From a virus (Duplodnaviria > Caudoviricetes): a DNA stretch of 64,000 nucleotides. The stretch covers positions 64,001 to 128,000 of IMG/VR virus record IMGVR_UViG_3300020048_000009; one strand, given 5' to 3'. The translations under genes were made by a program, and so were the position numbers. Within the stretch, counting starts at the first letter, position 1. Each line of letters opens with the position of its first letter. Under the pieces are notes generated by a model. The model was not told where the DNA came from. It did not search any database and saw only the letters and a program-made list of their open reading frames with translations. Below, in pieces: positions 7,721 to 24,920 of this stretch.

Positions 7721-7844
7721 ATAGGGACAGATGGTTGGTGCCATTTGGCATATTTATTCATATAATATGTCTAACCTATTTATATTTTTGATAAATAAAA
7801 TAGAGGTTACACCAATAACCTCTTTAAAATAAAGGTAAAACAAT
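7721..7844 (+). ncRNA. Endonuclease-leader structured RNA, copy 1
   Basis: Three-way junction plus downstream hairpin; loops TTGGTG (7735-7740) and CACCAA (7810-7815) are complementary. Confidence 0.7.
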
Positions 7845-8699
7845 ATGATTAATGAATTAAATACTATACATAAATTATGTGATTGTGGCTGTGGTAAAGA
7901 AGTTTCTATAAATAGAGATACCAAAAAGCCTAATAAAGTTATTAGGGGACATACATCAATAGCGATTAGAAAGAAATTAGCAGAATCGCATACTGGGAAA
8001 AAATTCTCAGAAGAACATAAAACAAATTTAGCACTTTCACATAAATGTAAAGAAACACAACAAAAGCTAAAAGATACCAATATAAAAAAATATGGTGTCG
8101 AAAGCCCAATGCAATCGCCTATTCTTAGAGAGAATCATAAAAAGGCATGTTTAAAAAACCTAGGATATAATACACCACGAGAATCCGCTCTGGTTAAAGA
8201 AAAGCATAATAAAACATGTATAGAGAAGTATGGGGTAGATAATTGGGCTAAATCAATAGATGGTCGCAAATTTGCTAGGGTTAATAGAATAAAGGTAATT
8301 GAAGTTCAGAAACTAAATGGTGAGCCTTTAAGCCCATGTATAGGTATAAAAGAAAGAGAATGCTTAAATGAATTACAACCCCATATTTCATTTAATATCA
8401 TTAGGAACGATCACTCCTTTAAAAAATTAACTGGAAGATTTCCAGATGGTCATATCAAAGAACTTAAATTATTTATACAATTTGATGAGCGGCACCATTT
8501 CATAGATAAAGAAATGTTAATATATAAAGAACAAGATATTCGATGTACTAAAGATTTAGAATCAATACCTGGTTATACGGTTTTTAGAATTTCAGAAAGA
8601 GAATGGTTAGACAATAAACAAAAGGTTATAATAGATTTTAAAAATATATGTAAACAGTGTACATTACCACAAAGCATGTCTGAAAATAATTTTAACTAA
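7845..8699 (+). mobile_element. Putative homing endonuclease (NUMOD3-like + KYGV repeats + PD-(D/E)xK/DUF559-like domain)
   Basis: CDCGCG; SHTGKKFSEEHKTNL; KKYGVESP/EKYGVDNW; FPDGHI..LFIQFDERHH..GYTVFRISEREW; GATAAATA upstream. Confidence 0.7.
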
Positions 8700-8777
8700 A
8701 TTTAGATTTGCGGTGTATTAACAACGACGTTTAAGGTAATATAGTATTATCTTAATTAAACAAAGGAGCAACAACTG

Positions 8778-8909
8778 ATGAAGACCGTGACCAATGGAAA
8801 AGAGATCAAGCGAGCAACCGATGCGCAAGCAACCAAGCTCGTTGATAAGCAGGGTTGGAAGTATTGTTCGAAAGAACTGTGGAAAAAAGAAGTTCGTGAT
8901 GTAAAGTAA
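8778..8909 (+). CDS. 43-aa hypothetical protein
   Basis: AAGGAG RBS after a GTGTAT promoter; MKTVTNGKEIKRATDAQATKLVDKQGWKYCSKELWKKEVRDVK. Confidence 0.6.
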   Translation: MKTVTNGKEIKRATDAQATKLVDKQGWKYCSKELWKKEVRDVK

Positions 8910-8932
8910 ACAAATCAAACAAGGAAAAAATT

Positions 8933-9547
8933 ATGAGCAAAGTATTCAAGTTGGACAAGGCTGGGCGTGACACATTGTTACAGGCGGTGGCGGCAAAATT
9001 CGCGGCAACATCTGCGTGGCCGATCAAGGAGTCAGATCGCAAGGAAAATTACGTTTTCCTGGATCCGGTTATGGGCATGAAGGCATACAATGAAGGCGTC
9101 CGCTTCTGTGTGCAGTCGTCAGCGAAGACCGTCAATGTCTGCCTGGAAGTTTATTCCCGCAAGGAGGATGAAGCCAAGCAGCACGCGTTCGCCGCTCGTT
9201 TGCAAGAAGTGTTTGCGGACAAGGTTGAAGTTGCAGGCCTCAAGATGGAGTGGAAGGTTATCTATAAGGGTGGATTGCTCCGCGTTGCAATTCCCGCCAA
9301 CAAGACGGATGACGAAATGGTGACCATCATGTCTGACTTCAAGGCCGCTTTGATTGCCGAGTATAACGGCTTCTTCGCTGAGCTGGCCGCATCTGCTGAT
9401 GATACACCCATCACACCTGTGCCTGAGCAAGCTCCCGTTGAAGAGGTAGCTGCTCCTGCCGAAGGTGCACCGGCCGCTGATCAGGTGATTGAAGATGAAG
9501 CGCCTGCTGCGCCGCCCGTTGTTGAAGAGGAAGTTGACTTGGCATAA
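8933..9547 (+). CDS. Hypothetical protein with acidic Ala/Pro tail, GC-rich codons
   Basis: AAGGA RBS; terminator follows. Confidence 0.8.
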   Translation: MSKVFKLDKAGRDTLLQAVAAKFAATSAWPIKESDRKENYVFLDPVMGMKAYNEGVRFCVQSSAKTVNVCLEVYSRKEDEAKQHAFAARLQEVFADKVEVAGLKMEWKVIYKGGLLRVAIPANKTDDEMVTIMSDFKAALIAEYNGFFAELAASADDTPITPVPEQAPVEEVAAPAEGAPAADQVIEDEAPAAPPVVEEEVDLA

Positions 9548-9568
9548 GCAAGTGAAATGGTCTTCGAG

Positions 9569-9598
9569 AAGGGTGTGTAGCAATACACACCTTTTTTA
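9569..9598 (+). terminator. Intrinsic terminator
   Basis: AAGGGTGTGTA gcaa TACACACCTT followed by T-run. Confidence 0.75.
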
Positions 9599-9644
9599 TT
9601 TTCTATAGGTGTATATCATCTAAAGCTTTTGTTATTATTAATAT

Positions 9645-9776
9645 ATGAAAGCAAAGAAAAAGAAACCTGTTATGAAATCGATTAGAAAGTCTTGGGGGAT
9701 CCGACCTGTAACAAAGGTAAAGGAATCTAAGAAAATCTATAAGCGGGATAATAAAAATCCGCAGTGTATTTATTAG
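9645..9776 (+). CDS. Small basic protein (RKSWGIRPVTKVKESKKIYKR)
   Basis: Hand-translated, after promoter. Confidence 0.55.
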   Translation: MKAKKKKPVMKSIRKSWGIRPVTKVKESKKIYKRDNKNPQCIY

Positions 9777-9903
9777 AATAGTTTTGGCATTATATAAGTA
9801 TAACAAATCAAACAAGGAGCACGTTATGAATGGTCAAGACTGGGATGATGATGGAATCTGGTGGGGACGTGGTGATTGGTCAAGTTACTAAGGAGAACAA
9901 GTT

Positions 9904-10053
9904 ATGAGAATCTATGGAATCTTCGCATACTTTTTTCCAAAGCGCAAGTATATGTGCCTTGGTTGTGGTGTACATGGAGAAATGGATCAGATTAAGGATC
10001 CTGCCATGAAGTGTCCCAAGTGTGGACATTGGACTGTAAAGTTTTTAAATTAA
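9904..10053 (+). CDS. Small Zn-ribbon protein
   Basis: CLGC...CPKCG; AAGGAG RBS. Confidence 0.55.
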   Translation: MRIYGIFAYFFPKRKYMCLGCGVHGEMDQIKDPAMKCPKCGHWTVKFLN

Positions 10054-10160
10054 AATTAAAACTTCGGTGTATTATCTTCAAACTATCTGTTATATTAATA
10101 GTATAACAAATCAACAACAGATGTTAATCAAAACATCTCATTAAGAAAGAGAACAAAAAC

Positions 10161-10472
10161 ATGAACAAGCGTGATTCAAAAGGTCGGTTCCTTCCCAAGT
10201 CGGCGAAGGTTGAAGCTACAGTTACCCCCAAGGTCGCTCCTCAGGTCGAGAAGATGATCCAGGGTATTCCCATGAAGGAAATCGTTGCACTCGGTCAGAA
10301 GGCAATTTCCCTTCTCGGCACGGCAACCATCCAGAAGATGGAAGCAGCTCTCATCGAGCAGTACAAGAATGAGCCCATCTTCGTCAGCAACATGGAAAAG
10401 CTTCTGCCCATCTATCTCAAGCTCGGTATGACGGATGTTGCAAATACCGTGGTTGACAAGCTGATCGGCTAA
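10161..10472 (+). CDS. Hypothetical protein, N-terminal RDxxGRF motif
   Basis: GC-rich codons; followed by hairpin terminator (about 10486-10525). Confidence 0.75.
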   Translation: MNKRDSKGRFLPKSAKVEATVTPKVAPQVEKMIQGIPMKEIVALGQKAISLLGTATIQKMEAALIEQYKNEPIFVSNMEKLLPIYLKLGMTDVANTVVDKLIG

Positions 10473-10687
10473 TCTCCTCACAACATAGGGTTGGATAGTG
10501 TCAGACTATCCAATCTTATTTTTTTAAAGACTTTACTTAAATGTAAAGATCTTTTTATTTTACTTTTTGCCTTTTGTTGGTATACACAACAGATTAAAAG
10601 GTTTTATATTTTCTAATAATGTTTAGGTGTATTATTAGAAGACTTTTTGTTATATTTATATTATAACAATTTGTACAGGAGCACGTT

Positions 10688-11554
10688 ATGCAGATATCGA
10701 TTAAATCCTTTGTTACCGAGACAATGACTAAAACCTATAAGATTCCTTTAAATAGGGATGCTAATGTTCGAGCTATTGCCATCAATGTACTTGCTCCTGA
10801 TGTCGAGTATCCTGTCTGGCTTATCCATGAGGTAGATGGTGCAGGACGTACCACCTTTAGAGTTGCAGGTCGTATTAATGACACGTATGCGCAGGCTGTT
10901 GGCAATGAAGTAGTTGATGTTACGATAGCATCACAACAGTATTATGCCTTTGTGACAGAGTGGAATGTTGAAGCCGAACGCCTACAGGAAATTGAAAAAC
11001 AAAAAGCCATTGCAATAGAAAATGAAAAAATTGCAGTGATAATGGCAGATATTAATAAGGTGTTTCCTGTTATGGGAGCAATCGGTGGTGAAAAGGTAGA
11101 CAATCAATGGTCGTTTAATGAACCTCCTACTTCTACTGTTGTTATTCTTTACTGTAACCTCGTAAAATTTAGACTAAGAAAAGAATATGACAAATGGGAG
11201 TTAACCGTTTTTGGTGAGTACACTTCTACGGCATATGAAAGCAAAAGATCAAAAAATCTTTTACCCGTTCTAAAATATATTCTAGAAATCTGTCAAGAGT
11301 ATTTTGATCGGGCTAAAATCCGGTTTGAAGAAAGACGTCGTGAAAAACTATTAAGAACCGTGATGACCGAGGCAGGCTGGGAACATGATAGCGGCAGCCG
11401 CTGGATTAAAAACAGACCTGATGGTGGAGAGTATAAAGCCTGGGTTGAAATGGATGATGCACCAAGTGAGAGGGTTTATATCGTTTCTCTTTCCAGGAAA
11501 ATTGCAGGAATGGAAATAGTTCCTAGCAAAAATGACTGTTGTATCATGGAGTGA
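10688..11554 (+). CDS. Hypothetical protein
   Basis: AGGAG RBS, promoter upstream. Confidence 0.75.
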   Translation: MQISIKSFVTETMTKTYKIPLNRDANVRAIAINVLAPDVEYPVWLIHEVDGAGRTTFRVAGRINDTYAQAVGNEVVDVTIASQQYYAFVTEWNVEAERLQEIEKQKAIAIENEKIAVIMADINKVFPVMGAIGGEKVDNQWSFNEPPTSTVVILYCNLVKFRLRKEYDKWELTVFGEYTSTAYESKRSKNLLPVLKYILEICQEYFDRAKIRFEERRREKLLRTVMTEAGWEHDSGSRWIKNRPDGGEYKAWVEMDDAPSERVYIVSLSRKIAGMEIVPSKNDCCIME

Positions 11555-11620
11555 TGCGAGTGTATTTCTTCTAAGTGTTTTAGTATTATATAAGTATAAC
11601 AAATCAACAAGGAGTATCAA

Positions 11621-11932
11621 ATGGTCTTAACAATTATTATTTTGTCGGTTGTAATCGTAATGCTCATCGGCGTTCTTATCGTGGGTAAAATGTTTTATTC
11701 TGATTTGATTGCCGGCTTTGAATGGGAAGCTGAAGAGTATAAGAAAAAGCTTGAGGTCTATAAAGCAGAACGAAACACATATATCACGCGCAGAGTGGAT
11801 CTTGAATGTGCTCTCCTCTGGTGGGTGAATGAATGTATGAAAGACTATTCCGATAAACAATACGGAAAAGGAAAGTTGAAAGAATTGATTGAAAAGGATA
11901 AATTAATTAACATTTCGAAAGTGAGTAAATAA
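11621..11932 (+). CDS. Membrane-anchored hypothetical protein
   Basis: N-terminal TM helix; AAGGAG RBS. Confidence 0.7.
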   Translation: MVLTIIILSVVIVMLIGVLIVGKMFYSDLIAGFEWEAEEYKKKLEVYKAERNTYITRRVDLECALLWWVNECMKDYSDKQYGKGKLKELIEKDKLINISKVSK

Positions 11933-11933
11933 T

Positions 11934-12632
11934 ATGAAAGATCTAATTGCATATCTAGGAAATTCTACAACTGATGAACGCTATCAGAAACTGATCGGGT
12001 TACTTCAGGAATGCGGCGCAGACTTCTATACACAAATGAATGATCCCTTTAACGCATTCTTTGCTGTGAAGAACATTATCATCCCGGCTCGTGAGCAAGT
12101 GAATAAGATTGTTCTCTGTGCACATTACGATGTTGTATATGGATCGTCTGGCTATTTGGATAATACATCAGCTATCGTTTTGGTGTTGTCCATTCTGCCT
12201 GATCTGTTGAAGCATGATAACGTTGAGATCATTTTCTCAGATAGAGAAGAGCAAGGCGGAACAGGTGCAAGTCACTATTGCAACATGTCCAAAACCGTTC
12301 CTCGCTTGGTTGTCAACCTTGACATCATCGGGCATGGCGAAGTGCTGTACTATTGTCGGTACAATGTACACTCTACAATCTTGGAGAAACTGAACGAAAA
12401 GTGTATTGAACAGAATTATCCCTTCTGTGATTTCAATATCTTTAGAATGAATCAGTTCCCTTGTGTGTCAATCATCTCTGCTCCATCTGGACCCTTTCAG
12501 GCAGCACTCACAGCAGACTACACATGTATGCATCGCGGGAAGTTCGATGGCGACATGGACAAGATTGACATCAACACTCTTGAACGTACACAAATCGTTT
12601 TACTTGAGCTGCTGGAATTTATGAATTCTTAA
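11934..12632 (+). CDS. M28-family Zn peptidase
   Basis: AHYD, DNTSA, DREE, VNLDIIG and late H motifs. Confidence 0.8.
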   Translation: MKDLIAYLGNSTTDERYQKLIGLLQECGADFYTQMNDPFNAFFAVKNIIIPAREQVNKIVLCAHYDVVYGSSGYLDNTSAIVLVLSILPDLLKHDNVEIIFSDREEQGGTGASHYCNMSKTVPRLVVNLDIIGHGEVLYYCRYNVHSTILEKLNEKCIEQNYPFCDFNIFRMNQFPCVSIISAPSGPFQAALTADYTCMHRGKFDGDMDKIDINTLERTQIVLLELLEFMNS

Positions 12633-12704
12633 AAGAGTAGGTATATTTTATAATAGAAATAACCTACAATAGTATTATAACAATTCATTAAGAGAGGTAT
12701 CATT

Positions 12705-12959
12705 ATGAAGAAGATGCGAGTTTCAATTTGCGGCAAGAAGCACACCATCGAAGTTCCTGAAGGTTACAAGCGAGTCTTCAAGGGCCGGATTTTTAATGGC
12801 GACCTTTGGTTTGATGCTAATGGTGATCGGACTGTTCTTGCGCACGCTGAGCATGCTTCAAATATCGAAGATGGCTGGGAATGTATTTTCAGAAAGATTG
12901 AGGATCTTCCTGCGCCTGAACCCAAAATCGATGTTGTAATTATTTTGGTAATTGTTTAA
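12705..12959 (+). CDS. Hypothetical protein
   Basis: GAGG RBS, promoter upstream. Confidence 0.65.
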   Translation: MKKMRVSICGKKHTIEVPEGYKRVFKGRIFNGDLWFDANGDRTVLAHAEHASNIEDGWECIFRKIEDLPAPEPKIDVVIILVIV

Positions 12960-13039
12960 TCCATCAGTATATTTTCAGAATGAATTGTTATATTATTTAA
13001 GTATAACAATTCGTTATTACTTATTAGAAAGGATTAAGT

Positions 13040-13501
13040 ATGCCAGTTTATACTGTGAAGAATATTAAAACTTTTAGAGGACATGAGGGCCATGGTTTTA
13101 ATGTAAGCTTATATTGTGACAATAAGAAAGTTGCATTTGTAATGGATCAAGCAGATGGTCACCCTGTCATTATTGAATGGGATGATCCTTCTGCTGAAGG
13201 CGTTTTAAATAATCATATTAAAGATATGACTTACACTTTTTATGAAACCGTTAATCCAATGACAGCTGATATTTTCATTGCACAACTTGTGGATAGGGTT
13301 GAAAATGAAAAAGCTGTTCTCGCTCAACAAAAACGTTGGATTAAAAATCAAACGGTTTTTCATATTAAAGGTGAACCTGAAGGAGACTTCAGAACTGTTA
13401 AATCTCCTTTTTCTAAAAAGATCAAAGAGTTTATCATAAATAAATATGGTGATCAAGTGGAGTATATTCTAAATGAACGTCATGGACAAATCGCAGTTTA
13501 A
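13040..13501 (+). CDS. Hypothetical protein
   Basis: AAGGA RBS, promoter upstream. Confidence 0.7.
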   Translation: MPVYTVKNIKTFRGHEGHGFNVSLYCDNKKVAFVMDQADGHPVIIEWDDPSAEGVLNNHIKDMTYTFYETVNPMTADIFIAQLVDRVENEKAVLAQQKRWIKNQTVFHIKGEPEGDFRTVKSPFSKKIKEFIINKYGDQVEYILNERHGQIAV

Positions 13502-13808
13502 CAACCCTTTAACAAACCCTATTGCAATCAATAGGGTTAATCTGCCCTTTATGAATGTTGGTGCAGATCCGCTGTTTGTGTTCTATATTGGTGTATTAGG
13601 AGAAGTTCATTTCTATGCTTTTCCGATTAGCTCTAAACTCAATCAAGAAGAAACGTCTGTCTTCATTGAGAAAGCTATTAAATACATCAAGCTGGAGTAC
13701 TCAAAGGAATACATCCTTGTGACCAGGGTTGAGCCTGATGGGTTTCTGATGTTGCAGGACGTAGACAAAATAATCGCTGATCGTAAAGCAGCACAAAAAG
13801 AAAAGTAA
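13473..13808 (+). CDS. Hypothetical protein
   Basis: Followed by terminator hairpin 13810-13852. Confidence 0.6.
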   Translation: MNVMDKSQFNNPLTNPIAINRVNLPFMNVGADPLFVFYIGVLGEVHFYAFPISSKLNQEETSVFIEKAIKYIKLEYSKEYILVTRVEPDGFLMLQDVDKIIADRKAAQKEK

Positions 13809-13974
13809 AATAGAATTCCTAGAGAACACCAATCTAGGAATTCTATTTTTTATTTAGAATATACGGTATACATATTATAATATTAATATGTTTTGATTTT
13901 TAAATAAATCCAGTATATTTCTTCTGAATGATTTGTTAATATATAAGTATAACAAATCAACAAAGGTTATCGCT

Positions 13975-14421
13975 ATGAAGAAGATTACGTTTTGGGAAGT
14001 GTTTCAAAATCGCGTATCGAATTGTGCTGGCTGCAAAGGCTGGCAATGTGCGTTCACAAAGGAGAATGGTTTTGAATTCCCTTATCGATATTCGAAGGAC
14101 ACAGAGCGCAATGATGGTGTGCCAGGGCCTTACACACCGGCTGAATGTAAGGTCATCAATGCTGATCTGTCTGATGCCAAGCGGCAGTTCAAGGCATATG
14201 TGGAGGGGCTCAAGATTCTCTTCAAGAACAATTTCTATCCGGGTGCATGTGAATCAATGGTACAGGGTGAAAAGGATCGCGTGGATTTGATCGCCAGGTT
14301 TCACAAGCTGATCTATTCCTTTAACAATGGGACGAAGGATATTATCAAGATTGGAATGGGATCTAAGTATTCCATTACCGATTATGTCGATGGCAGCTTT
14401 GTCGGGTATATAAGGGATTAA
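13975..14421 (+). CDS. Hypothetical protein (CAGCKGWQC)
   Basis: Promoter and conserved leader upstream. Confidence 0.7.
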   Translation: MKKITFWEVFQNRVSNCAGCKGWQCAFTKENGFEFPYRYSKDTERNDGVPGPYTPAECKVINADLSDAKRQFKAYVEGLKILFKNNFYPGACESMVQGEKDRVDLIARFHKLIYSFNNGTKDIIKIGMGSKYSITDYVDGSFVGYIRD

Positions 14422-14484
14422 TCAAACTAGGTGTATTAATTAAAATCATTCTTATATAATAATAAGAAACGAAAGGATTATATT

Positions 14485-14712
14485 ATGACAGATGGAGTTT
14501 ATGCTATTTTTACGACTATTTTACTGATTATTGCGGGCGTTCTCTTTTTTAGAATGGGAATGTCTTTTACGGATTTTGAATTTTCACGTGGCGAACGTAA
14601 AGTTTTTGCCTGGTCTAATGTTTCAGATCTGAATGCTGAATTGGCAAAAGGCTGGACGGTCATCAGAACATATGATGTTACAAATAATGTTCTAGGAAAA
14701 AAGTACAGGTAG
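14485..14712 (+). CDS. Small membrane protein
   Basis: TM helix; AAGGA RBS. Confidence 0.55.
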   Translation: MTDGVYAIFTTILLIIAGVLFFRMGMSFTDFEFSRGERKVFAWSNVSDLNAELAKGWTVIRTYDVTNNVLGKKYR

Positions 14713-14882
14713 CTGTATCTCGGTGGAATACATAAGGAGAAAATGATATGTTTACTAAGTTAGATGTCTATGGTTTTATACTGGGATCTGTTATTTTTTT
14801 CCAGGTGTACGGCCAGCAATATAGTGTAATGATTTACGAAATTACAGTGTGCAGCGTTTCAGCTTTCTGTTAATATGTTGTT

Positions 14883-15164
14883 ATGAATAAAACGTATAGC
14901 AACTTGAAAATCTTTGCACAATTCTATGCTTTATCTACTGGATATGTGGAAGGTACTATTCCACCGGTATTTAAAGAAGAGAACAAAATGCTTATTCCCG
15001 TGTGCGGATCAGATGGAACATTGCTTTTAGACGGTAGGAAATGTATTACTACTCTAATGAGCATTGCTAGCAAAACCTGTAAGGAAAGAAATTTCCTAGG
15101 ATATGTTATCAATAAAGGAACTTTTGATAATCCTAGACAACTTACAATGTTACAAACAGTTTAA
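14883..15164 (+). CDS. Hypothetical protein
   Basis: Co-oriented ORF. Confidence 0.55.
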   Translation: MNKTYSNLKIFAQFYALSTGYVEGTIPPVFKEENKMLIPVCGSDGTLLLDGRKCITTLMSIASKTCKERNFLGYVINKGTFDNPRQLTMLQTV

Positions 15165-15239
15165 AGTTTTAGTGTATTTTCTTATAGTATAAGGTTATAT
15201 TATAAGTATCAAAACAAACAAAGAAAGGTTATAAAACGT

Positions 15240-17236: not shown

Positions 17237-17312
17237 ATTTAATAAAACTTGGTGTATGTTATTGTTGTATCTTACTATGATACATACATCAAGTTTAAAT
17301 TAAAGGTTACTT

Positions 17313-17564: not shown

Positions 17565-17577
17565 AAAAGGAAAGTTT

Positions 17578-17874
17578 ATGAAAGTTATTATCACGGCTAT
17601 TAAAACAGCCAATAAACCGGTTCTCACACAGGCCGAACGCAATGAAAAGTTTTGGAAGGAAACGTCTTATCCGAGACTTGGTATCGATGAACAACTGGGA
17701 AATATTATTTATTTCATGTCTTATGGTAAAGGTATGAAGATTGTAAATACAACACCCATTGGTCGTGATGGCCATGCAAACGTTGTCCCAGGTGTCTTTA
17801 GAGATAATTGGACAATGGGGTATTATGCCGAATTGCCAGAAGATGTGAAGGTGAATGTTACCTTTTCAAATTAA
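17578..17874 (+). CDS. Hypothetical protein
   Basis: AAGGAAAG RBS. Confidence 0.6.
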   Translation: MKVIITAIKTANKPVLTQAERNEKFWKETSYPRLGIDEQLGNIIYFMSYGKGMKIVNTTPIGRDGHANVVPGVFRDNWTMGYYAELPEDVKVNVTFSN

Positions 17875-17882
17875 GGATTGTT

Positions 17883-18239
17883 ATGAAGACATCTGGATTT
17901 GATAGAAGTTTGGGTTCTAGGGAAAATAAAGGTTTCCTTCAATTGACGAATAATGGAGGAGCCTTACTTTTCACGACATCTTTTAATGGTAATGAAGTTC
18001 CAATTATGTTGGGGCCTGCATTAGAAAAGAAAGGTGTATCATCTTTAACCGGTCAGCCATATACCTATATGAATAGTATTATATGGATCCCTAATAAGAA
18101 CGGTCCAGGCAGGGGAGCAGTAGTTCCTCTAGAAGAATTCAAACAGGCATATGCCGATAAGAATGAAGAGTACATTAAAAAGTTATGTGATTTGGGAATT
18201 CCTGATATCACATATATAAGTAAGAGATTTTTGGTATAA
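17883..18239 (+). CDS. Hypothetical protein
   Basis: AAGGA RBS. Confidence 0.6.
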   Translation: MKTSGFDRSLGSRENKGFLQLTNNGGALLFTTSFNGNEVPIMLGPALEKKGVSSLTGQPYTYMNSIIWIPNKNGPGRGAVVPLEEFKQAYADKNEEYIKKLCDLGIPDITYISKRFLV

Positions 18240-18241
18240 TT

Positions 18242-18463
18242 ATGCTAACAGAAGTAACCAAAGATTTTTATAGACAGATTACAGAACATAGAACTTATGA
18301 ATTTGAAAAGAATCGTAGGGGTGAATGGAATGTAAATGTTTATTCAAATGATCAAAAGCTAAATGAAGATGAAGCTTTTATTTCTAGAGAATCTGGAAAC
18401 ATCATGGTTATAACTGAAGCAGAAGATTTTATTAGAAACAACGAACAAGTGATTATAGGGTAA
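18242..18463 (+). CDS. Hypothetical protein
   Basis: Co-oriented ORF. Confidence 0.55.
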   Translation: MLTEVTKDFYRQITEHRTYEFEKNRRGEWNVNVYSNDQKLNEDEAFISRESGNIMVITEAEDFIRNNEQVIIG

Positions 18464-18467
18464 GAAA

Positions 18468-18809
18468 ATGAGTATTAAGAAACCGAAATTAACTATTATG
18501 CGTACACCAAAAGCGGGTAAAGTATTACCCAAAATTGGGGAGTTCTTTACTGTTAAGAATTTTGAAAATCCGGATAACAATGGATTAGTATTAATTAGAA
18601 TCGATCCTTGTTATATATCTCCAGCAATTGTTGAAGCTGGATGTAGTTGGAATAATTGTGGTGCTCATGAAATTGTTTTTGGTATTCCGCTTGGAGAAGC
18701 ATTTAATAGTGCTCAAACTAAAATCAATGGCGCATGTACATGTCCTATTAAAACTATGGATTTTATAGTTTTGGATATTGAAGAAATTAAAGCAAAAATT
18801 AAAAGTTAA
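18468..18809 (+). CDS. Hypothetical protein
   Basis: Co-oriented ORF. Confidence 0.6.
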   Translation: MSIKKPKLTIMRTPKAGKVLPKIGEFFTVKNFENPDNNGLVLIRIDPCYISPAIVEAGCSWNNCGAHEIVFGIPLGEAFNSAQTKINGACTCPIKTMDFIVLDIEEIKAKIKS

Positions 18810-18810
18810 G

Positions 18811-18840
18811 GTGTATATTGTAGCGAGTATCAAGTATAAT
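18811..18840 (+). promoter_or_regulatory. Promoter opening the RNA island
   Basis: GTGTAT-N18-TATAAT. Confidence 0.75.
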
Positions 18841-18854
18841 TAAAGTATAAATTT

Positions 18855-19330
18855 TGATTCCATCAGGGGAATGAAAAGTGGTTTAAGCCTGATGCGTCTC
18901 GACGGTTTGCTGAATATTGTTAGGGTCCTTTCTTCCTAATAATGTTTATACTGTCGAGGGTACCGATAGGTTACGGAAAATTATTTTCAAAAATATTTCA
19001 TTTTTATTTTTGGAAATGATAAATAAAATAAAATTAAGGATAAAGCAAATGTTTACGAACACATATAGAGGCAATGATAAAGGCAATACAGAACTATGTA
19101 TTACTAATGCCGGGGCTTTATCCAATCTTACAGCAGTAAATTTCCCAGAACGAATAAAGCCCGTAACCCAAGTTTAATTTAAACGGTAAAATGTTTTGGG
19201 TTACTACTAGGAGAGGTTAAGCCTAGTGCGTTCTATAAAATTTACTGTGTCTAATGCTAAACACGAAATTTTGTAGAGGTCCTCAAAAGAAATGAGCAAT
19301 TATTTCTTTAGATTTGATCTGTGACAATTG
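18855..19330 (+). ncRNA. Large structured RNA candidate (about 470 nt) leading the tRNA array
   Basis: At least eight hand-identified helices; see findings. Confidence 0.55.
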
Positions 19331-19393
19331 AATAGAAAACTTTAAATTATTTTTTGGTGGTTTTTATAACTCAAAAAACTACCCAACTTTTAT

Positions 19394-19470
19394 GAGCTCG
19401 TAGAGGAAATGGTTAACTCATGTGGTTTTCATCCACAAGATTGCCGGTTCGAATCCGGTCGGGCTTACCA
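19394..19470 (+). tRNA. trnE: tRNA-Glu(TTC)
   Basis: Cloverleaf; TGTGG-TTTTCAT-CCACA; CCA. Confidence 0.92.
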
Positions 19471-19561
19471 TATAAGCATGACGACTAGACTAGCAATGCT
19501 TTCAGCTTATAGCTAAACTAGTGACACGGCGGAGAGCACGTCGGACAATTTTATAATTTAT

Positions 19562-19647
19562 GGATAGGTGCTCCTGAATGGTAAGGGGACGGTCTTGAAA
19601 ACCGTAGGCTAACCCCACTGCACGTTCGATTCGTGTCCTATCCTCCA
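19562..19647 (+). tRNA. trnS: tRNA-Ser(TGA)
   Basis: ACGGT-CTTGAAA-ACCGT; long V-arm; CCA. Confidence 0.9.
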
Positions 19648-19694
19648 ATTTGTGGCGCGTCACGGTGTGTGTATAAGTCGCTTCGATTTATTAT

Positions 19695-19772
19695 GGGGCC
19701 ATAACTCAGTCCGGCTAGAGTGTCTCCCTTGCACGGAGAAAGTCGGGGGTTCAAATCCCTCTGGCTCCACCA
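19695..19772 (+). tRNA. trnA: tRNA-Ala(TGC)
   Basis: G3:U70; TCTCC-CTTGCAC-GGAGA; CCA. Confidence 0.95.
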
Positions 19773-19776
19773 ATTT

Positions 19777-19868
19777 GGCTGCATTCCGGATGCAGTCGGA
19801 TCAATTCACCTGATGTACTAGAGCGAGTCAGGAATTATGAAACAGTAAAATTCTGTATCGGTCTGCCA
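19777..19868 (+). ncRNA. Structured RNA ending in CCA, not a cloverleaf
   Basis: GCTGCA/TGCAGT hairpin; CGGATC/GGTCTG; CCTGA/TCAGG; ACAG/CTGT. Confidence 0.4.
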
Positions 19869-19876
19869 ATTTATGT

Positions 19877-19952
19877 AGAACGTTCGCGTAGTGGTTAGCG
19901 CACTAGACTGTCGATCTGGATTTCACGGGTTCGATTCCCGTACGTTCTGCCA
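19877..19952 (+). tRNA. trnD: tRNA-Asp(GTC)
   Basis: CTAGA-CTGTCGA-TCTGG; G73; CCA. Confidence 0.92.
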
Positions 19953-19962
19953 TTTTAATTTA

Positions 19963-20039
19963 CGGAGTGTGGAGGCAATTGGCTGCCCACGTGCCTTGGA
20001 CGCATGGTTATGTCGGATCGTTCCCGACCACTCCGACCA
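19963..20039 (+). tRNA. trnP: tRNA-Pro(TGG)
   Basis: CGGAGTG/CACTCCG; CTTGGAC loop; atypical T-loop ATCGTTC. Confidence 0.9.
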
Positions 20040-20052
20040 ATTTTTCTAGAAA

Positions 20053-20127
20053 GCCAACTTGACTGAATGGTTAAGTACCTCATTTGTAATGAGACCCATA
20101 ACGGTTCGATCCCGTTAGTTGGCTCCA
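20053..20127 (+). tRNA. trnT: tRNA-Thr(TGT)
   Basis: GCCAACT/AGTTGGC; TTTGTAA loop; CCA. Confidence 0.9.
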
Positions 20128-20220
20128 TATTTTATATACGAAAGTAATATATTCTAAAACCGGTACTTTCTTTTCAAATATGTATACCGGCTTTAATAAA
20201 TAAAATTAAAGGAATATATT

Positions 20221-20946
20221 ATGAATACAGTAATTTGTCCAATATGTGGAAAAGAATACAAACAATTAATAGCACAACATATTTTTAAACACGGTTTGAC
20301 TATTGAAGAATTTAAACTTAAATTTCCAGATTTTTATTTAGGTAGTCCGGGTATTGAAAGTACTAGAAAAGAAAAAATGGTACTTCAATATGAAAAAGAT
20401 AATATACGATGTAAACATTGTAATAAATTAATAACATCACCAAATAGAAAACATAGAATCTTTTGTAGTACTTTATGTAAAGCTACTTATTATTCTTTTA
20501 ACAAAGAGCTTGTTCAAACAAAAGGAAAACATTTTAAAAAAATCTGTTGTGCATGTAATAAAGAATATAAAGCCTTTAGAGATAATTCTAAATTTTGTTC
20601 TAATAAATGTCAACAAGAATATATTAATGTTCAAAAAATTAAAGAATGGAAAGACGCCACAGAACAGGGAAAACCTTTTCCCTATAGAAAATGGATAAGA
20701 CATTATCTTTTTAAAAAATATGATAACAAATGCTGTAAATGTGGGTGGAGTAAGATTAATCCTTTTACAGGAAATGTTCCTTTAGAACTTGAACATATTG
20801 ATGGTAATTCAAATAACAATAAAGAAGAAAATTTAGAATTGTTATGTCCCTGTTGTCATGCCTTAACTTCCACATATAAGGGTGCAAATAGAGGTAATGG
20901 AAGATTCTCTAGAAGACAAAGATACCAAGAAGGTAAATCTTATTAA
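20221..20946 (+). mobile_element. HNH homing endonuclease with Zn-finger N-terminus
   Basis: CCKCG...LELEHIDGNSNNNKEENLELLCPCCH; ATAAATA upstream. Confidence 0.88.
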
Positions 20947-20957
20947 TAAAATTTAAT

Positions 20958-21031
20958 GCGTCTGTAGCTCAATGGTCGAGCCCGTCCTTGCCAAGGATGT
21001 TATACGAGTTCAATTCTCGTCAGATGCTCCA
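20958..21031 (+). tRNA. trnG: tRNA-Gly(GCC)
   Basis: TTGCCAA loop; U73; CCA. Confidence 0.92.
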
Positions 21032-21040
21032 ATTTAAAAT

Positions 21041-21115
21041 GTTTAATATGAGCTAATGGTAAGCTTCCAGGTTTAAAGACCCAGAGTATATAGGTTCAAC
21101 TCCTATTATTAGATA
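21041..21115 (+). pseudogene. Degenerate tRNA, anticodon unresolved (TAA or TTA register)
   Basis: D-arm and ATAGG-TTCAACT-CCTAT T-arm intact; anticodon stem mismatched; no CCA. Confidence 0.55.
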
Positions 21116-21120
21116 TTTAT

Positions 21121-21195
21121 GCGTTTGTAACTCAATTGGCAGAGTGCTGGGCTTCCAACCCGGATATACGGGATCATACCCCGTCAGATGCTCCA
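21121..21195 (+). tRNA. trnG: tRNA-Gly(TCC)
   Basis: CTGGG-CTTCCAA-CCCGG; T-loop ATCATAC. Confidence 0.88.
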
Positions 21196-21201
21196 TTTAA
21201 A

Positions 21202-21275
21202 GCGATGTTAGCAAAATGGTTATGCGGCGGTCTGCAAAACCGCTTACATGTGTTCAATTCACATACATTGCTCCA
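21202..21275 (+). tRNA. trnC: tRNA-Cys(GCA)
   Basis: GCGGT-CTGCAAA-ACCGC; U73. Confidence 0.92.
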
Positions 21276-21285
21276 TTTTATTTAT

Positions 21286-21361
21286 GCTCTCTTATTTCAG
21301 TGGCTAGAATGCTTCCTTTACACGGAAGAGGTCAGGAGTTCGAATCTCTTAGGGAGTACCA
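21286..21361 (+). tRNA. trnV: tRNA-Val(TAC)
   Basis: CTTCC-TTTACAC-GGAAG; CCA. Confidence 0.92.
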
Positions 21362-21367
21362 TTTTTT

Positions 21368-21444
21368 CGAAGTATAACTCAGTTGGTTAGAGTACCTGTC
21401 TGATACACAGAATGTCGGTGGTTCGAATCCATCTACTTCGACCA
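21368..21444 (+). tRNA. trnI: tRNA-Ile(GAT)
   Basis: CTGATAC loop; CGAAGTA/TACTTCG; CCA. Confidence 0.92.
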
Positions 21445-21451
21445 TTTTATT

Positions 21452-21535
21452 GGGACTGTGGCGTAATGGCAGACGCGCTGGTTTTAGACACCAGTGGAGA
21501 AATCCGTGAAGGTTCAAGTCCTTTCAGTCCCACCA
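21452..21535 (+). tRNA. trnL: tRNA-Leu(TAG)
   Basis: CTGGT-TTTAGAC-ACCAG; V-arm GGA-GAAA-TCC; A73. Confidence 0.92.
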
Positions 21536-21564
21536 GTTTTGTTTCATTAAAGCATATAATATCA

Positions 21565-21636
21565 GTGTATAAAAGCCAATGAATATACTACTATATTAAT
21601 ATCAATTACGCAATTGATACTGTTCTTTGAATAACA
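21565..21636 (+). promoter_or_regulatory. Promoter + hairpin + boxA-like site
   Basis: GTGTAT-N18-TACTAT; ATCAATT-acgc-AATTGAT; TGTTCTTTGAATAAC at 21621. Confidence 0.65.
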
Positions 21637-21646
21637 ATTTTTAAAT

Positions 21647-21735
21647 CGCAGGGTGGCGTAATTGGCAGCCGCAGCGGACTTAAAATCCGCTGGGTGGTAA
21701 CACCCGTGAGGGTTCGAGTCCCTCCCTTGCGACCA
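21647..21735 (+). tRNA. trnL: tRNA-Leu(TAA)
   Basis: GCGGA-CTTAAAA-TCCGC; long V-arm; CCA. Confidence 0.92.
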
Positions 21736-21994
21736 TTGATCCTTAGTTAGAAGATTGTGTTCTGTCAGCCCATCAAGATAGACGTTTGAGATCATGCCTC
21801 TTCTGGAACAAGTATATAAACTTTAAGCCTTTGAGCGGACAGGTTTATATTAAGTGAAATCCTTGATGGTCGGCGGTGTATTCCAGTCTTTTGTTTTAGT
21901 ATGATATTAATGTTTTCGTTACCTGACCGTTGGACTAAGTGCACTTCGTAAGAAGGCTCCAATCAATCAGCTTCTCCATTAACCAGCAGCATAT

Positions 21995-22071
21995 AGGCGT
22001 GTAGCTCAGCTGGTTAGAGCGGGATCCTTATAAGGTCTAGGTCGCTGGTTCAACTCCAGCCACGCCTACCA
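21995..22071 (+). tRNA. trnI: tRNA-Ile(TAT)
   Basis: GGATC-CTTATAA-GGTCT; AGGCGTG/CACGCCT; A73. Confidence 0.85.
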
Positions 22072-22088
22072 TTTTTTAGAAAGTAATT

Positions 22089-22238
22089 ATGCTTTATTAT
22101 TGGACAAGAGTTTATAATACAGGTGCTGCCCATTATTGGGAAGTAGAAAGTGAAGAAGCTTTACTTATCGCTGCAAAAGAAAAGTATGGTGAATCACTTT
22201 TTGATTATGGAATGACAACTCAAAAGAAAACAAAGTAA
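22089..22238 (+). CDS. 49-aa hypothetical protein
   Basis: Hand-translated ORF between tRNAs. Confidence 0.45.
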   Translation: MLYYWTRVYNTGAAHYWEVESEEALLIAAKEKYGESLFDYGMTTQKKTK

Positions 22239-22250
22239 ACAATTTTTAAT

Positions 22251-22332
22251 GGGAATGTATCTCCCCCGCCTTCTAAGCGGACGTTAAAAGAGTAATTGGA
22301 GTATGCAGGTTCGATCCCTGTCTTTCCCGCCA
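22251..22332 (+). ncRNA. Rearranged tRNA-Arg(TCT)-like RNA lacking a positional D-arm
   Basis: GGGAATG/CTTTCCC-G-CCA; CCGC-CTTCTAA-GCGG; GCAGG-TTCGATC-CCTGT. Confidence 0.7.
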
Positions 22333-22417
22333 TTTTAGCTAAGAGTAGTAAATATTTAATTTACTTATATATTTAAGCTGCGCTTTTAATAAATAAAATT
22401 AAGGGTATAACTTAAAT

Positions 22418-22924
22418 ATGAAAAATAAATGTCATAAATGTAATGTAGATATTCCAAACAGGGTTAAAATAGATAACTGTTGGAAAACAATTAACCATAG
22501 AAAATTTTGTTTAATCTGTTCACCGTGGGGTAAACATAATACTAAAAGCGTGGATCCTTCTAAAAGAACGCTTTCAGAAAAAGAAAGACATTCCTGGAAA
22601 AATTTAACAGATAAACAAAAAACATGTCATAAAACATCACAACATAAGAGAGCCGTTAAGCGTAAGGTTGAACTTATTAATATGCGAGGTGGGAAGTGTG
22701 AAAGATGTGGTTATGATAAATGTATTGATGTATTTCATTTTCATCATATAGATCCATCGTTAAAAACCATGAACATGGGATTAAATTCTCTATGGTGTAA
22801 ATCATGGGAAAAGATTTTACAGGAATTTGAAAATTGTAAAGTATATTGTTCTAATTGCCACATGGAAGTGCATTATGAATTAAAAAATCCTGATAATAAA
22901 CAATGTACTTTAATTTCAAAATAA
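22418..22924 (+). mobile_element. HNH homing endonuclease
   Basis: GGKCERCG...FHFHHIDP...CKVYCSNCHMEVH; ATAAATA upstream. Confidence 0.85.
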
Positions 22925-22936
22925 TATGATTAGCCA

Positions 22937-23007
22937 GTGTATAAAAAGAAGAGATTATCATATTATATATCTATCAAGTATGTACTTGAGCATGTTCTTT
23001 GACAATT
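22937..23007 (+). promoter_or_regulatory. Promoter + hairpin + boxA-like site
   Basis: GTGTAT-N18-TATTAT; TCAAGT-atgt-ACTTGA; TGTTCTTTGACAATT at 22993. Confidence 0.65.
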
Positions 23008-23029
23008 AATAGCAAATGATTTTTTTAAT

Positions 23030-23114
23030 GGAAGCGTGGCCGAACGGCTAGGCATCGGACTTTTAATCCGAGGGAGAAATCCTAACGCAGGTTCGACCCC
23101 TGTCGCTTCTACCA
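23030..23114 (+). tRNA. tRNA with Lys(TTT) anticodon on a class II long-V-arm body
   Basis: TCGGA-CTTTTAA-TCCGA; V-arm GGA-GAAA-TCC; 3-bp D-stem; A73. Confidence 0.85.
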
Positions 23115-23132
23115 TCTTTTTAGTTTTCAAAT

Positions 23133-23206
23133 TGTCCCATAGTGTAATGGCAGCACAGCACCCTTTGACGGTGTTTGTATTGGTTCAAGTCCAGTTGGGA
23201 CAACCA
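23133..23206 (+). tRNA. trnQ: tRNA-Gln(TTG)
   Basis: GCACC-CTTTGAC-GGTGT; T1:A72. Confidence 0.92.
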
Positions 23207-23208
23207 AT

Positions 23209-23282
23209 ATTCCCATGTTGTAAAGGATGCATGCGGCGCTACGAACGCTTCGGTTGGAGTTCGAATCTCTATGGGAATACCA
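23209..23282 (+). tRNA. trnR: tRNA-Arg(ACG)
   Basis: CTACGAA loop; ATTCCCA/TGGGAAT; CCA. Confidence 0.85.
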
Positions 23283-23287
23283 TTTTA

Positions 23288-23346
23288 AAGACGCAAACAG
23301 CAATTCAAATAAAAATTCACTGTTAATGAAAAAAAAAACGCGTCTT
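23288..23346 (+). ncRNA. Anticodon-stem-loop mimic (Asn GTT) in an AAGACGC/GCGTCTT stem
   Basis: TTCA-CTGTTAA-TGAA at 23316-23330. Confidence 0.5.
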
Positions 23347-23354
23347 GTTTTTAT

Positions 23355-23429
23355 AGTAGAGTAGGCAAGTGGTAATCCGCCTCCCTGTTAAGGAGGACAG
23401 CGCTGGTTCGATCCCAGCCTCTACTGCCA
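23355..23429 (+). tRNA. trnN: tRNA-Asn(GTT)
   Basis: CCTCC-CTGTTAA-GGAGG; G73. Confidence 0.92.
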
Positions 23430-23432
23430 CTT

Positions 23433-23555
23433 TGGGAACAGATGGTTAGCGCCATTTGGCATATTTATTCATGTAGTATGCCTAACCCATTTATATTTTT
23501 GATAAATAAAATAGAGGTTACGCTAAGAACCTCTTTAAAATAAAGGTAAAATAAT
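23433..23555 (+). ncRNA. Endonuclease-leader structured RNA, copy 2
   Basis: Loops TTAGCG (23446-23451) and CGCTAA (23521-23526). Confidence 0.7.
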
Positions 23556-24236
23556 ATGATTAATAAATTAGATGAATCATGGAAGCAAGTAAACGGTTTA
23601 TATAAATGTCCAATATGTAGTAAAGAGTATTCTAAAAAAGGAATTTGTTCGCATATCTTTAGATCACATACAAAAGACGGTAAATATAATTCTTTTAAAG
23701 ATAATAACAGATTATATACTTCATCGTGGAATAAAGGTTTAATAAAAGAAACAGATCTTAGAATCAAGAAATCTGGTGAGAAACTTAAAGAAAGTCTTAA
23801 CTCTGGTAAAGTAATACCACCACAAACAGGAAAACCTATTGCTCCTGAAATAAAAGCTAAAATATCCAATACGATGAAGATTGCTCATAAAGAAGGAAGA
23901 GCGTGGAATATTGGAAAGTCTAGATGGAATAACAAAGCTTCATATCCAGAAGAATTCTTTATGAAGGTTATTGAAAATGAATTTGAGGATAAGAATTATA
24001 TAAGAGAATTTAATGTTGGTATTTATTCTATAGATTTTGCATGGACCGATAAAAAGTTAGCTATAGAAATAGACGGACAACAGCATAAACGATTTGAAGA
24101 ATATAAACAGAGAGATCTTCGGAAAGATGAATGTTTATTAGAGAATGGATGGAAAGTTCTAAGAATTTTATGGATTGATATGTATAAGGATCCACACAAG
24201 TGGATTAAAATTGCTAAAGATTTTATACATAATTAA
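23556..24236 (+). mobile_element. Putative homing endonuclease, DUF559/Vsr-like nuclease with C2H2- and NUMOD-like N-terminus
   Basis: CPICSK..HIFRSH; YSIDFAWTDKKLAIEIDGQQH..RD..L..NGWKVLRI. Confidence 0.82.
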
Positions 24237-24249
24237 GAATTTTATTAAT

Positions 24250-24325
24250 GCGATTGTAGCTCAGTAGGCAGAGCGTCGGACTCTTAATCCGAAGCGCGTG
24301 GGATCATAGCCCTCCAGTCGTACCA
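24250..24325 (+). tRNA. trnK: tRNA-Lys(CTT)
   Basis: TCGGA-CTCTTAA-TCCGA; T-loop ATCATAG. Confidence 0.88.
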
Positions 24326-24363
24326 TTTTGATGTACAAGATCAGATAGACATGAGAATTTTAT

Positions 24364-24437
24364 TGCGCGGTTGAGGAGAGGCCCCTCTGCAGGCTCATAA
24401 CCTGCCTACGCCGGTTCGAATCCGGCCTGCGCAACCA
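24364..24437 (+). tRNA. trnM: tRNA-Met(CAT)
   Basis: GCAGG-CTCATAA-CCTGC; CCA; initiator vs elongator unresolved. Confidence 0.88.
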
Positions 24438-24446
24438 ATTTAACAA

Positions 24447-24597
24447 CACGGCGTGAGGAAAGAACTTGTTCTATGATTCTTAATTCGATTCTAGTAAGAT
24501 AGTACTGTCTGAACGAGGATGTTATTAAGCGGAGAACAGAAATCCTACCGGAAACATGTCCGGAAATCGCAGGTATCGAATCCTGTCGCCGTAACCA
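24447..24597 (+). ncRNA. 151-nt initiator-tRNA-like RNA with 83-nt D-loop insertion
   Basis: C1:A72 mismatch; AGGA/TCCT D-stem; CCGGA-AACATG-TCCGG; T-arm; A-CCA. Confidence 0.65.
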
Positions 24598-24603
24598 ATT
24601 TTA

Positions 24604-24679
24604 GGAGTTTTGTTGTAGATGGTTCGCAAAACGGTCTGAAAAACCGAAGGATAGGGTTCGATCCCCTGAAACTCCACCA
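24604..24679 (+). tRNA. trnF: tRNA-Phe(GAA)
   Basis: CTGAAAA loop; GGAGTTT/AAACTCC. Confidence 0.9.
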
Positions 24680-24690
24680 TTTTATTTTCT

Positions 24691-24778
24691 GGTAGTTTAT
24701 TCCGTAGGTAGTCTCGGGGCGCACTGTAAATGCGCTGGCTAATACCCTAAGGTAGTGCAACTCTATCAACTACCACCA
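24691..24778 (+). tRNA. trnY: tRNA-Tyr(GTA)
   Basis: GCGCA-CTGTAAA-TGCGC; long V-arm; T-loop TGCAACT. Confidence 0.88.
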
Positions 24779-24783
24779 GCTTT

Positions 24784-24920
24784 AAATAAGGACAGATGGT
24801 TAGCGCCATTTGGATGTTTTTCATATGACACGCCTAACTTATTTAATTATTTTTTCATATTTTTTGATAAATAAAATAGAGGTTACGCTAAGAACCTCTT
24901 AAAAATAAAGGTAAAATAAT
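24784..24920 (+). ncRNA. Endonuclease-leader structured RNA, copy 3
   Basis: AAATAAG/CTTATTT closing stem; loops TTAGCG and CGCTAA (24886-24891). Confidence 0.7.

Follow-up and report, generated by a model that had tools for sequence, protein, structure and literature searches.

The window analysed here is the whole stretch of 64,000 nucleotides (nt) at bases 64001–128000 of the 211,678-base-pair (bp) IMG/VR virus record IMGVR_UViG_3300020048_000009, which comes from an aquatic (lake-water) metagenome and has 30% G+C. The sequencing runs in which this phage occurs are of DNA, and two runs labelled as RNA contain <10% of its sequence words. It holds 24 transfer RNA (tRNA) genes, and three copies of a structured leader element of ~125–135 nt stand before free-standing nuclease genes. 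All three copies lie on the + strand and end at the ATG start codons 7845, 23556, and 24921, as had been described in an earlier reading of this DNA from its letters alone (the original prediction). The mean column identity among the aligned copies is 82%. Two conserved cores each occur exactly 3 times in the window, against ~0 by chance, and 3 times in the whole record.

Copy 1 opens with a three-way-junction domain (7721–7779) made of the closing stem P1 (7721–7725/7775–7779), the dinucleotide GA (7726–7727), the hairpin P2 (7728–7734/7741–7747) with its loop L2 TTGGTG (7735–7740), the hairpin P3 (7748–7770), and the junction CTAA (7771–7774). The linker (7780–7801) contains a promoter-like box, GATAAATAAAAT, at 7790–7801. 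It is followed by the hairpin P4 (7802–7823; arms AGAGGTTA and TAACCTCT), whose loop L4 CACCAA (7810–7815) is the exact complement of L2, and by the leader proper (7824–7848), which contains AAAGGTAAAA and the start codon at 7845. Copy 1 sits behind a protein gene, and the nuclease gene that it precedes (7845–8699) encodes 284 amino acids (aa) and matches DUF7487 and the PHROG annotation 'homing endonuclease'.

Copy 2 has the same arrangement. Its junction domain (23433–23489) consists of P1 (23433–23436/23486–23489), AA in the place of GA (23437–23438), P2 (23439–23445/23452–23458) with loop L2 TTAGCG (23446–23451), P3 (23459–23481), and CTAA (23482–23485). The 3' half (23490–23555) comprises the linker with GATAAATAAAAT at 23501–23512, P4 (23513–23534) with loop L4 CGCTAA (23521–23526), and the leader (23535–23555). 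The second nuclease gene (23556–24236) encodes a 226-aa DUF559/MTES_1575 Vsr-like PD-(D/E)xK protein with an N-terminal zinc finger. In copy 3, the junction domain (24782–24846) is formed by a longer P1 (24782–24790/24838–24846), GA (24791–24792), P2 (24793–24799/24806–24812) with loop L2 TTAGCG (24800–24805), an irregular P3 (24813–24833), and CTAA (24834–24837). Its 3' half (24847–24920) has a 31-nt linker with GATAAATAAAAT at 24866–24877, P4 (24878–24899) with loop L4 CGCTAA (24886–24891), and the leader (24900–24920). The third nuclease gene (24921–25457) encodes a 178-aa HNH protein.

The stems named in the original prediction (ATAGG/CCTAT, TGGG/CCCA, (TT)AAATAAG/CTTATTT(AA), CAGATGG/CCATTTG, and AGAGGTT(A)/(T)AACCTCT) are all present in the copies, together with CTAA and the box written there as GATAAATA. 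The loop sequences TTGGTG/CACCAA of copy 1 and TTAGCG/CGCTAA of copies 2 and 3 likewise amount to two compensatory pair changes, and the matches to DUF7487/PHROG 'homing endonuclease', DUF559/MTES_1575, and HNH agree with its description of the downstream ORFs (open reading frames) as nuclease-like. Its placement of copies 2 and 3 directly after a tRNA CCA holds for copy 2, which begins 4 nt past a tRNA-Asn gene (23355–23429), and only in part for copy 3, where the preceding stretch is tRNA-like and ends in ACCA. This stretch (24686–24779) has an acceptor stem GGTAGTT/AACTACC, a long extra arm, and an anticodon-like loop CUGUAAA (GTA, Tyr). It was not called as a tRNA by ARAGORN or Rfam, and may be an unusual tRNA-Tyr or a tRNA mimic. 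ARAGORN also calls tRNAs with the unusual anticodons Phe(AAA) and Ser(ACT) at window positions 21041–21115 and 28990–29081.

Near-identity searches (megablast against GenBank phages, an exact 21-mer in IMG/VR, and relatives of the upstream 308-aa protein) returned no close relatives, and the phage lineage is poorly sampled. Relatives of the element were first found with a degenerate P2-hairpin pattern in IMG/VR and metagenomes. A covariance model built from five relatives (R1) then gave more copies in those contigs. After a wider pattern, the application of R1 to the new loci, and a scan of complete phage records with a second model (R2), the family counted 41 elements, including the three of the window, across ~25 phage or mis-binned contigs. 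The covariance-model search of phage and metagenome contigs that the original prediction had proposed therefore yields a family. Its member contigs include several large phage records of 185, 189, 204, 248, and 554 kilobases (kb), some are binned into rumen or gut metagenome-assembled genomes, and there are 1–3 copies per genome. Loci of relatives are cited below as L005, L007, and so on, with a position where needed. Unrelated coding sequence or terminators accounted for many of the P2-pattern matches, a P4-only pattern gave false matches only (L008, L009), and the candidates L053 (E 0.035) and L087 were dropped from the family. Thirty-six elements were parsed; 29 non-redundant sequences were used for covariation and 28 non-redundant elements for the analysis of the P3 loop.

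The consensus order is P1, GA, P2, P3, the junction CUAA, P1', a variable linker, P4, a AAAGNUAAAA leader, the Shine-Dalgarno (SD) sequence, and AUG. P1 has 4–14 bp, is always closed by G-C, and is followed by GA, rarely AA. P2 has 7 bp with a 6-nt loop and a nearly invariant stem. P3 has 5–9 bp and adjoins P2 directly, and the junction after it reads C-U-A/U-A before P1' begins. The linker varies from 3 to 31 nt, and P4 has 4–10 bp. The invariant junction nucleotides are the G-C pair that closes P1, GA, the C-G and A-U pairs at the base of P2, and CUAA. None of the 36 parsed elements has a Watson-Crick pair at the third position of P2 (G.U in 26, A.C in 8, U.U in 1, and C.C in 1). The motif AAAGNUAAAA directly 3' of P4 (e.g., window 7831–7840) is conserved in the family, whether or not it serves as the SD.

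In the MAFFT alignment of the 29 sequences, 96.3% of the cells of the structure including the pseudoknot are paired compared with 72.3% in shuffles, and both partners vary in 21 of its 28 pairs. The covariation score of 0.675 compares with 0.214 in shuffles (reached by 0 of 500), and it falls to ≤0.115 when the partners are slid by 1–3 columns. The covariation in homologs that the original prediction had looked to is thus clear, and it includes the kissing helix. G.U pairs in P1–P4 occur on the sense strand only and the orientation of the element is always that of the ORF, which places the constraint on the RNA. The claim of a selected RNA tertiary structure that acts as a portable leader of unrelated homing-endonuclease genes is upheld by this covariation and by the variety of the nuclease families downstream.

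The kissing interaction between L2 and L4 is Watson-Crick at 6 of 6 positions in all 36 parsed elements and occurs in 18 sequence versions, some of which are strand-exchanged, e.g., UUGCCG/CGGCAA versus CGGCAA/UUGCCG. In the alignment this helix is 100% paired, with double changes at all 6 pairs. Some elements of this set were chosen by demanding the loop complement, and the copies found by the covariance model only are therefore the unbiased cases that matter. Three of these (L065:647, L116:2801, and L073:6563) pair at 6 of 6 positions, L133 and L131 pair at 7 of 7 with 7-nt loops, and L134 pairs at 5 of 6. Different kissing versions also occur within one genome, with UUGGUG and UUAGCG in the present phage and three kinds in L027.

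A second long-range complementarity, absent from the original prediction, links the P3 loop with the translation initiation region of the downstream gene. The P3 loop of most relatives is UUCUC(C)-like and stands opposite GGAGAA. Strong single cases are UACUCCAA/UUGGAGUA in L027:7215, UGAACCU/AGGUUCA in L057, and AAUUCCA/UGGAAUU across the AUG in L060; UUUACC/GGUAAA is found in L056 and L074, and the loop UGCUCUA of L133 is opposite UAGAGCA at codons 3–5. Stepwise compensation is seen from UAAUUA/UAAUUA (L072) through UGAUUA/UAAUUA with a G.U pair (L116) to UGAUUA/UAAUCA (L113), and a compensatory pair distinguishes UUUCUC/GAGAAA (L028) from AUUCUC/GAGAAU (L031). In copy 1 of the window, ATATGA at 7843–7848 is complementary to TCATAT of the P3 loop (7758–7763). 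In 26 of the 28 elements, the position of the best P3-loop duplex relative to the AUG is between −14 and +12. When loops are exchanged among elements, the duplex energy rises from −6.61 kcal/mol for the own loops to −5.04 kcal/mol, and 0 of 20,000 permutations are as low as the former.

The strongest single argument for the second contact comes from two divergent copies in one phage, L132 and L135, whose loops have exchanged roles: the kissing partner of P4 is the P3 loop, and the SD is complementary to the P2 loop. L132 has UUUCCGG/CCGGAAA between the P3 loop and P4 (7 of 7) and GCUUUCC/GGAAAGC between the P2 loop and the SD (7 of 7). The corresponding pairs in L135 are CUGCCA/UGGCAG (6 of 6) and ACCACUCC/GGAGUGGU (8 of 8). 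Since kinship among the elements inflates swap-type tests and many of the duplexes are weak, the contact of the P3 loop with the SD/start-codon region is regarded as probable rather than certain. Two other forms of leader control were considered. Direct SD sequestration by local folding is not supported: it would rely on A/U-rich flank pairings that RNAfold gives in the window copies and that are not conserved. A translated leader peptide is rejected; it could be read from a frame of 21–25 codons in the window copies, but 16 of the 36 elements have no upstream ORF of ≥8 codons, and upstream ORF positions are not conserved in the remaining elements.

The intact ORFs behind the elements belong to the DUF559/MTES_1575 family (with zinc fingers or NUMOD3), HNH, SegE-type GIY-YIG, DUF7487, and NUMOD3-only proteins, and by these matches the downstream genes are homing-endonuclease-like and of at least four families. 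About 23 of the 36 parsed elements start ≤10 nt from an annotated tRNA 3' end, and almost all of the 36 are in tRNA clusters. At least 13 of the 41 copies do not adjoin a tRNA, and the divergent copies L131–L135 stand behind protein genes. Several intact leaders precede nuclease frames that break after 7–48 codons (L007:5102–5248, L037:4114–4254, L027:4478–4552, L027:2781–2846, and L031:3979 onward). These are decayed homing-endonuclease genes or assembly frameshifts, and the leader seems to outlive the nuclease gene. At L060:7285 onward (IMGVR_UViG_3300045988_166570, 553,716 bp), a nuclease-like ORF has ~10 in-frame TAG codons and no other stops, which suggests that this phage reads TAG as an amino acid. 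In a 204-kb phage, ARAGORN calls a transfer-messenger RNA gene with the tag ANDDIELAIAA* at the end of a tRNA cluster (L064:1691–2057, − strand).

Between P1' and P4, the present phage and many of the relatives carry an ATAAATA box (ATAAATAAAAT). The 100 nt upstream of ORFs in the present phage show a 7.3-fold enrichment of ATAAATAA, which precedes 54 of 307 ORFs. The consensus of the box is ttttaATAAATAAAATAaa, typically 25–40 nt ahead of the ATG, and it is also found ahead of the other three nuclease genes in the tRNA cluster. What the original prediction called a late-promoter box is accordingly promoter-like, with its 7-fold enrichment upstream of genes, but the word 'late' goes too far. 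A second class of upstream motif in the whole genome is TAGTGTATT / (G)GTATAAT, and the two classes look like two promoter types of the present phage.

The same tRNA cluster contains a fourth nuclease gene (26917–27858, + strand) behind a perfect 28-bp hairpin (26856–26922, + strand; −40.8 kcal/mol, z = −13) that is not a member of the family. The loop of this hairpin contains ATAAATAAAATAAATA, and the AUG at 26917 falls within the 3' arm. One phage thus appears to solve the same problem in two ways, by the junction leader and by a classical promoter-in-hairpin. The 5' arm of the hairpin (TTCGATCCCAC...) resembles a tRNA T-arm and acceptor remnant.

These features are best read, at a probability of roughly 60%, as a cis-acting translational lock by which the nuclease would be kept untranslated on read-through transcripts of the tRNA cluster. 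Free-standing homing-endonuclease genes that have settled in phage tRNA clusters, and more rarely behind other genes, would carry the element as their 5' leader RNA. Read-through transcripts from upstream would fold into the three-way junction of P1, P2, and P3, in which the two apical loops would serve as built-in antisense arms. One loop, usually that of P2, would make a kissing helix of 6–7 bp with the P4 loop, and the other, usually that of P3, would pair with 5–8 nt of the SD or start-codon region. The kissing helix would give affinity and register and would hold the weak anti-SD contact in place. With the initiation region masked, little or no nuclease would be made from the abundant tRNA-operon transcripts. 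On the other hand, transcripts that start at the internal box would contain P4 and an open ribosome site and would lack both antisense loops, and would thus be translatable. The cis action of the element, the lowering of translation by the mask, and the promoter role of the box are inferred from the sequences. Among the mechanisms offered in the original prediction, the switch that silences the nuclease on read-through transcripts is the one favoured. It is supported by the second contact, which provides a physical basis for such silencing, and by the neighbouring promoter-in-hairpin nuclease gene. The other option, a self-cleaving or tRNA-freeing element, has no specific support.

Several observations weigh against the cis lock. 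The anti-SD duplexes are short, at −3 to −11 kcal/mol, and many P3 loops are generic and CUCC-like, so that swapped loops bind fairly well too. Several members (L065:647, L116:2801, and L067) have a P3 contact of only 3–4 bp. In the window copies, the contact is an A/U-rich 6-mer, UCAUAU (UCAUGU in copy 2) against AUAUGA at the start codon, which alone is not significant (shuffle fractions 0.09–0.16). The ATAAATA box is absent from the 3–7-nt linkers of the L062/L064/L066/L069 subgroup and weakened in L027:2675, and release by an internal promoter therefore cannot be general; the RNA fold is the core of the family and the promoter an optional release. Nor are the genes behind the box clearly late: they include a DNA polymerase exonuclease subunit, a Nudix hydrolase, and another endonuclease, and with such replication-type functions among them the label 'late' is not supported. 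Lastly, the cis lock leaves unaccounted for both the diversity of the kissing sequences beside a nearly invariant P2 stem and the third P2 pair that is never Watson-Crick.

The diversity of the kissing sequences is better explained if the element works in trans as a C4-like antisense RNA, which is unlikely. The junction would be excised from the tRNA-operon transcript, with its 5' end produced by 3' processing of the upstream tRNA or by RNase P at P1, and the resulting small RNA would bind nuclease messenger RNAs (mRNAs) with a matching P4 loop, including mRNAs from internal promoters or those of co-infecting phages. The variable kissing loop would then be an address choosing which cassette is silenced. 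The build matches the description of the P1/P7 C4 RNA (PMC5320573), 18 address versions are found beside a nearly invariant P2 stem, one genome can hold differing addresses (UUGGUG and UUAGCG here; three kinds in L027), and the element starts right behind a tRNA in ~23 of 36 cases. However, copies 2 and 3 here and several copies in L007 and in L027 share the same address, which means that addresses are not kept orthogonal in those genomes. Regulator and target are moreover always adjacent on one strand, for which cis action is the simpler reading. A 3' end of the small RNA is not evident, and the Rfam C4 model gave no match. If trans action is true, the 18 or more kissing versions would be specificity codes under diversifying selection, a phage or cassette would silence the matching endonuclease mRNAs of its competitors or escape silencing, as a form of RNA-level homing immunity, and the versions would be a natural set of orthogonal kissing-loop translational repressors.

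The close adjoining of tRNA 3' ends can also be read in terms of RNA processing or stability, and this is rather improbable. Here the element would be a self-cleaving ribozyme or a substrate of RNase P or RNase III that splits the nuclease mRNA from the upstream tRNA. It would supply the cut formerly given by the displaced next tRNA, and it may also protect the mRNA from decay at its 5' end; RNase III could act on the stacked helix of P2, the kissing pairs, and P4 (~17–21 bp). In favour of this reading, the junction nucleotides are invariant, the third P2 pair avoids Watson-Crick pairing, as is seen at recognition or catalytic sites, and AAAGNUAAAA after P4 is conserved. Against processing, there is no ribozyme or other Rfam match at E ≤ 10, at least 13 of the 41 copies are not beside a tRNA, and the tracking of the SD/AUG by the second loop is left unaccounted for. 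The conserved junction core with its non-canonical pair might alternatively belong to a sensor, i.e., a riboswitch or protein-binding leader in which a ligand or protein stabilises or opens the two-contact fold, and the subgroup that lacks the internal promoter does need another route of expression. A sensor is more doubtful still, as the junction is small (2, 0, and 3–4 unpaired nucleotides) with no evident pocket, no riboswitch match was obtained, and autoregulation by the encoded protein is unlikely when the downstream nucleases are of unrelated families. Finally, an element that accompanies mobile nuclease genes and occurs repeatedly in a genome could be a DNA-level feature, such as a homing site, a PeSL-like recombination cassette, or a plain repeat with incidental pairings. 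This is highly improbable, since the covariation keeps the pairing and not the sequence, a G.U pair would be C.A on the other strand, two long-range contacts are present, and the orientation to the ORF is fixed.

A gathering-score Rfam scan of the window returned tRNAs only. Permissive Rfam 15 scans (E ≤ 10) of window 23400–24930, L028, L031, and L005 gave no match to the element apart from a sub-threshold SAM-II (E ~1, 19 bits versus a gathering score of 44). A likeness to the pistol ribozyme, in which a hairpin loop UUAGGG pairs with CCCUAA, was rejected, as the Rfam scan gave no pistol match and the topology is different. No matching RNA family was found in Rfam 15 or in the searched literature. 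A bulk catalogue of ~8,500 candidate RNAs from IMG/VR does not describe the motif in its text (PMC10690425), and the motif may be among its candidates without description. The element is thus a well-supported structured RNA class absent from Rfam, and its assignment to no known family stands.

Two known systems come close to the cis lock. In the T4-type homing endonuclease genes I-TevI, I-TevII, I-TevIII, segB, and Aeh1 mobE, the ribosome site is sequestered on read-through transcripts, and transcripts from a promoter inside the structure escape this sequestration (PMC2988022). The gene class is the same, with endonucleases embedded in other transcription units (segB lies in a tRNA cluster), and so is the inferred logic; the window hairpin at 26856–26922 is a textbook example of the T4 type. 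The masking of the ribosome site that defines this control has its counterpart in the P3 loop (P2 in L132 and L135), which is complementary to the SD or AUG by both statistics and covariation. In contrast to the single local hairpin of the T4 type, the mask here would be a distant three-way junction with a loop-SD duplex held by a kissing helix, and the embedded promoter is optional in the family. The present phage is also not evidently T4-like, as it encodes a DNA polymerase (phrog_262), an NAD-dependent ligase, and GroEL.

The P1/P7 C4 RNA has two hairpins on a closing stem at which RNase P cuts. The b' loop blocks the ribosome-binding site, the specificity comes from the a' loop, which binds upstream, and a few changed bases distinguish P1 from P7 (PMC5320573). 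The present element similarly has a closing stem and two antisense hairpin loops, one of which would cover the ribosome site, with the target downstream on the same transcript, and a few compensated base changes would give new specificities. P1–P3 together with the L2:L4 and P3-loop:SD/AUG pairings reproduce the C4 architecture, and the resemblance is one of architecture only; the Rfam scans without a C4 match do not support membership in the C4 family. Whereas both C4 targets are linear, one target here is a hairpin loop and the complex of the true kissing type. C4 acts on an antirepressor operon of lysogeny immunity, and the present element precedes homing endonucleases of lytic-type large phages. 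Excision and trans action have been shown for C4 (an RNA of ~77 nt) and are hypothetical for the present element. The regulatory idea is therefore known from T4 and the two-loop antisense build from C4, while an RNA family that combines kissing with an anti-SD clamp and is portable across nuclease families has no match in Rfam 15 or the searched literature.

Homing endonucleases must stay nearly silent in order to spare the phage that carries them. To our knowledge, the only known solution until now has been that of T4-type phages, in which a simple hairpin covers the ribosome site. The leader described here would be a more elaborate and portable solution, in which a compact junction RNA clamps its own mRNA at two points, and it moves among at least four unrelated nuclease families in phages from lake water to rumen. 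With covariation of unusual clarity at two tertiary contacts, it is well suited to structural study, and its many naturally compensated loop pairs are a ready set of orthogonal RNA-RNA interaction modules. Moreover, it would allow direct experiments on the tolerance of selfish genes within tRNA operons that are highly expressed.

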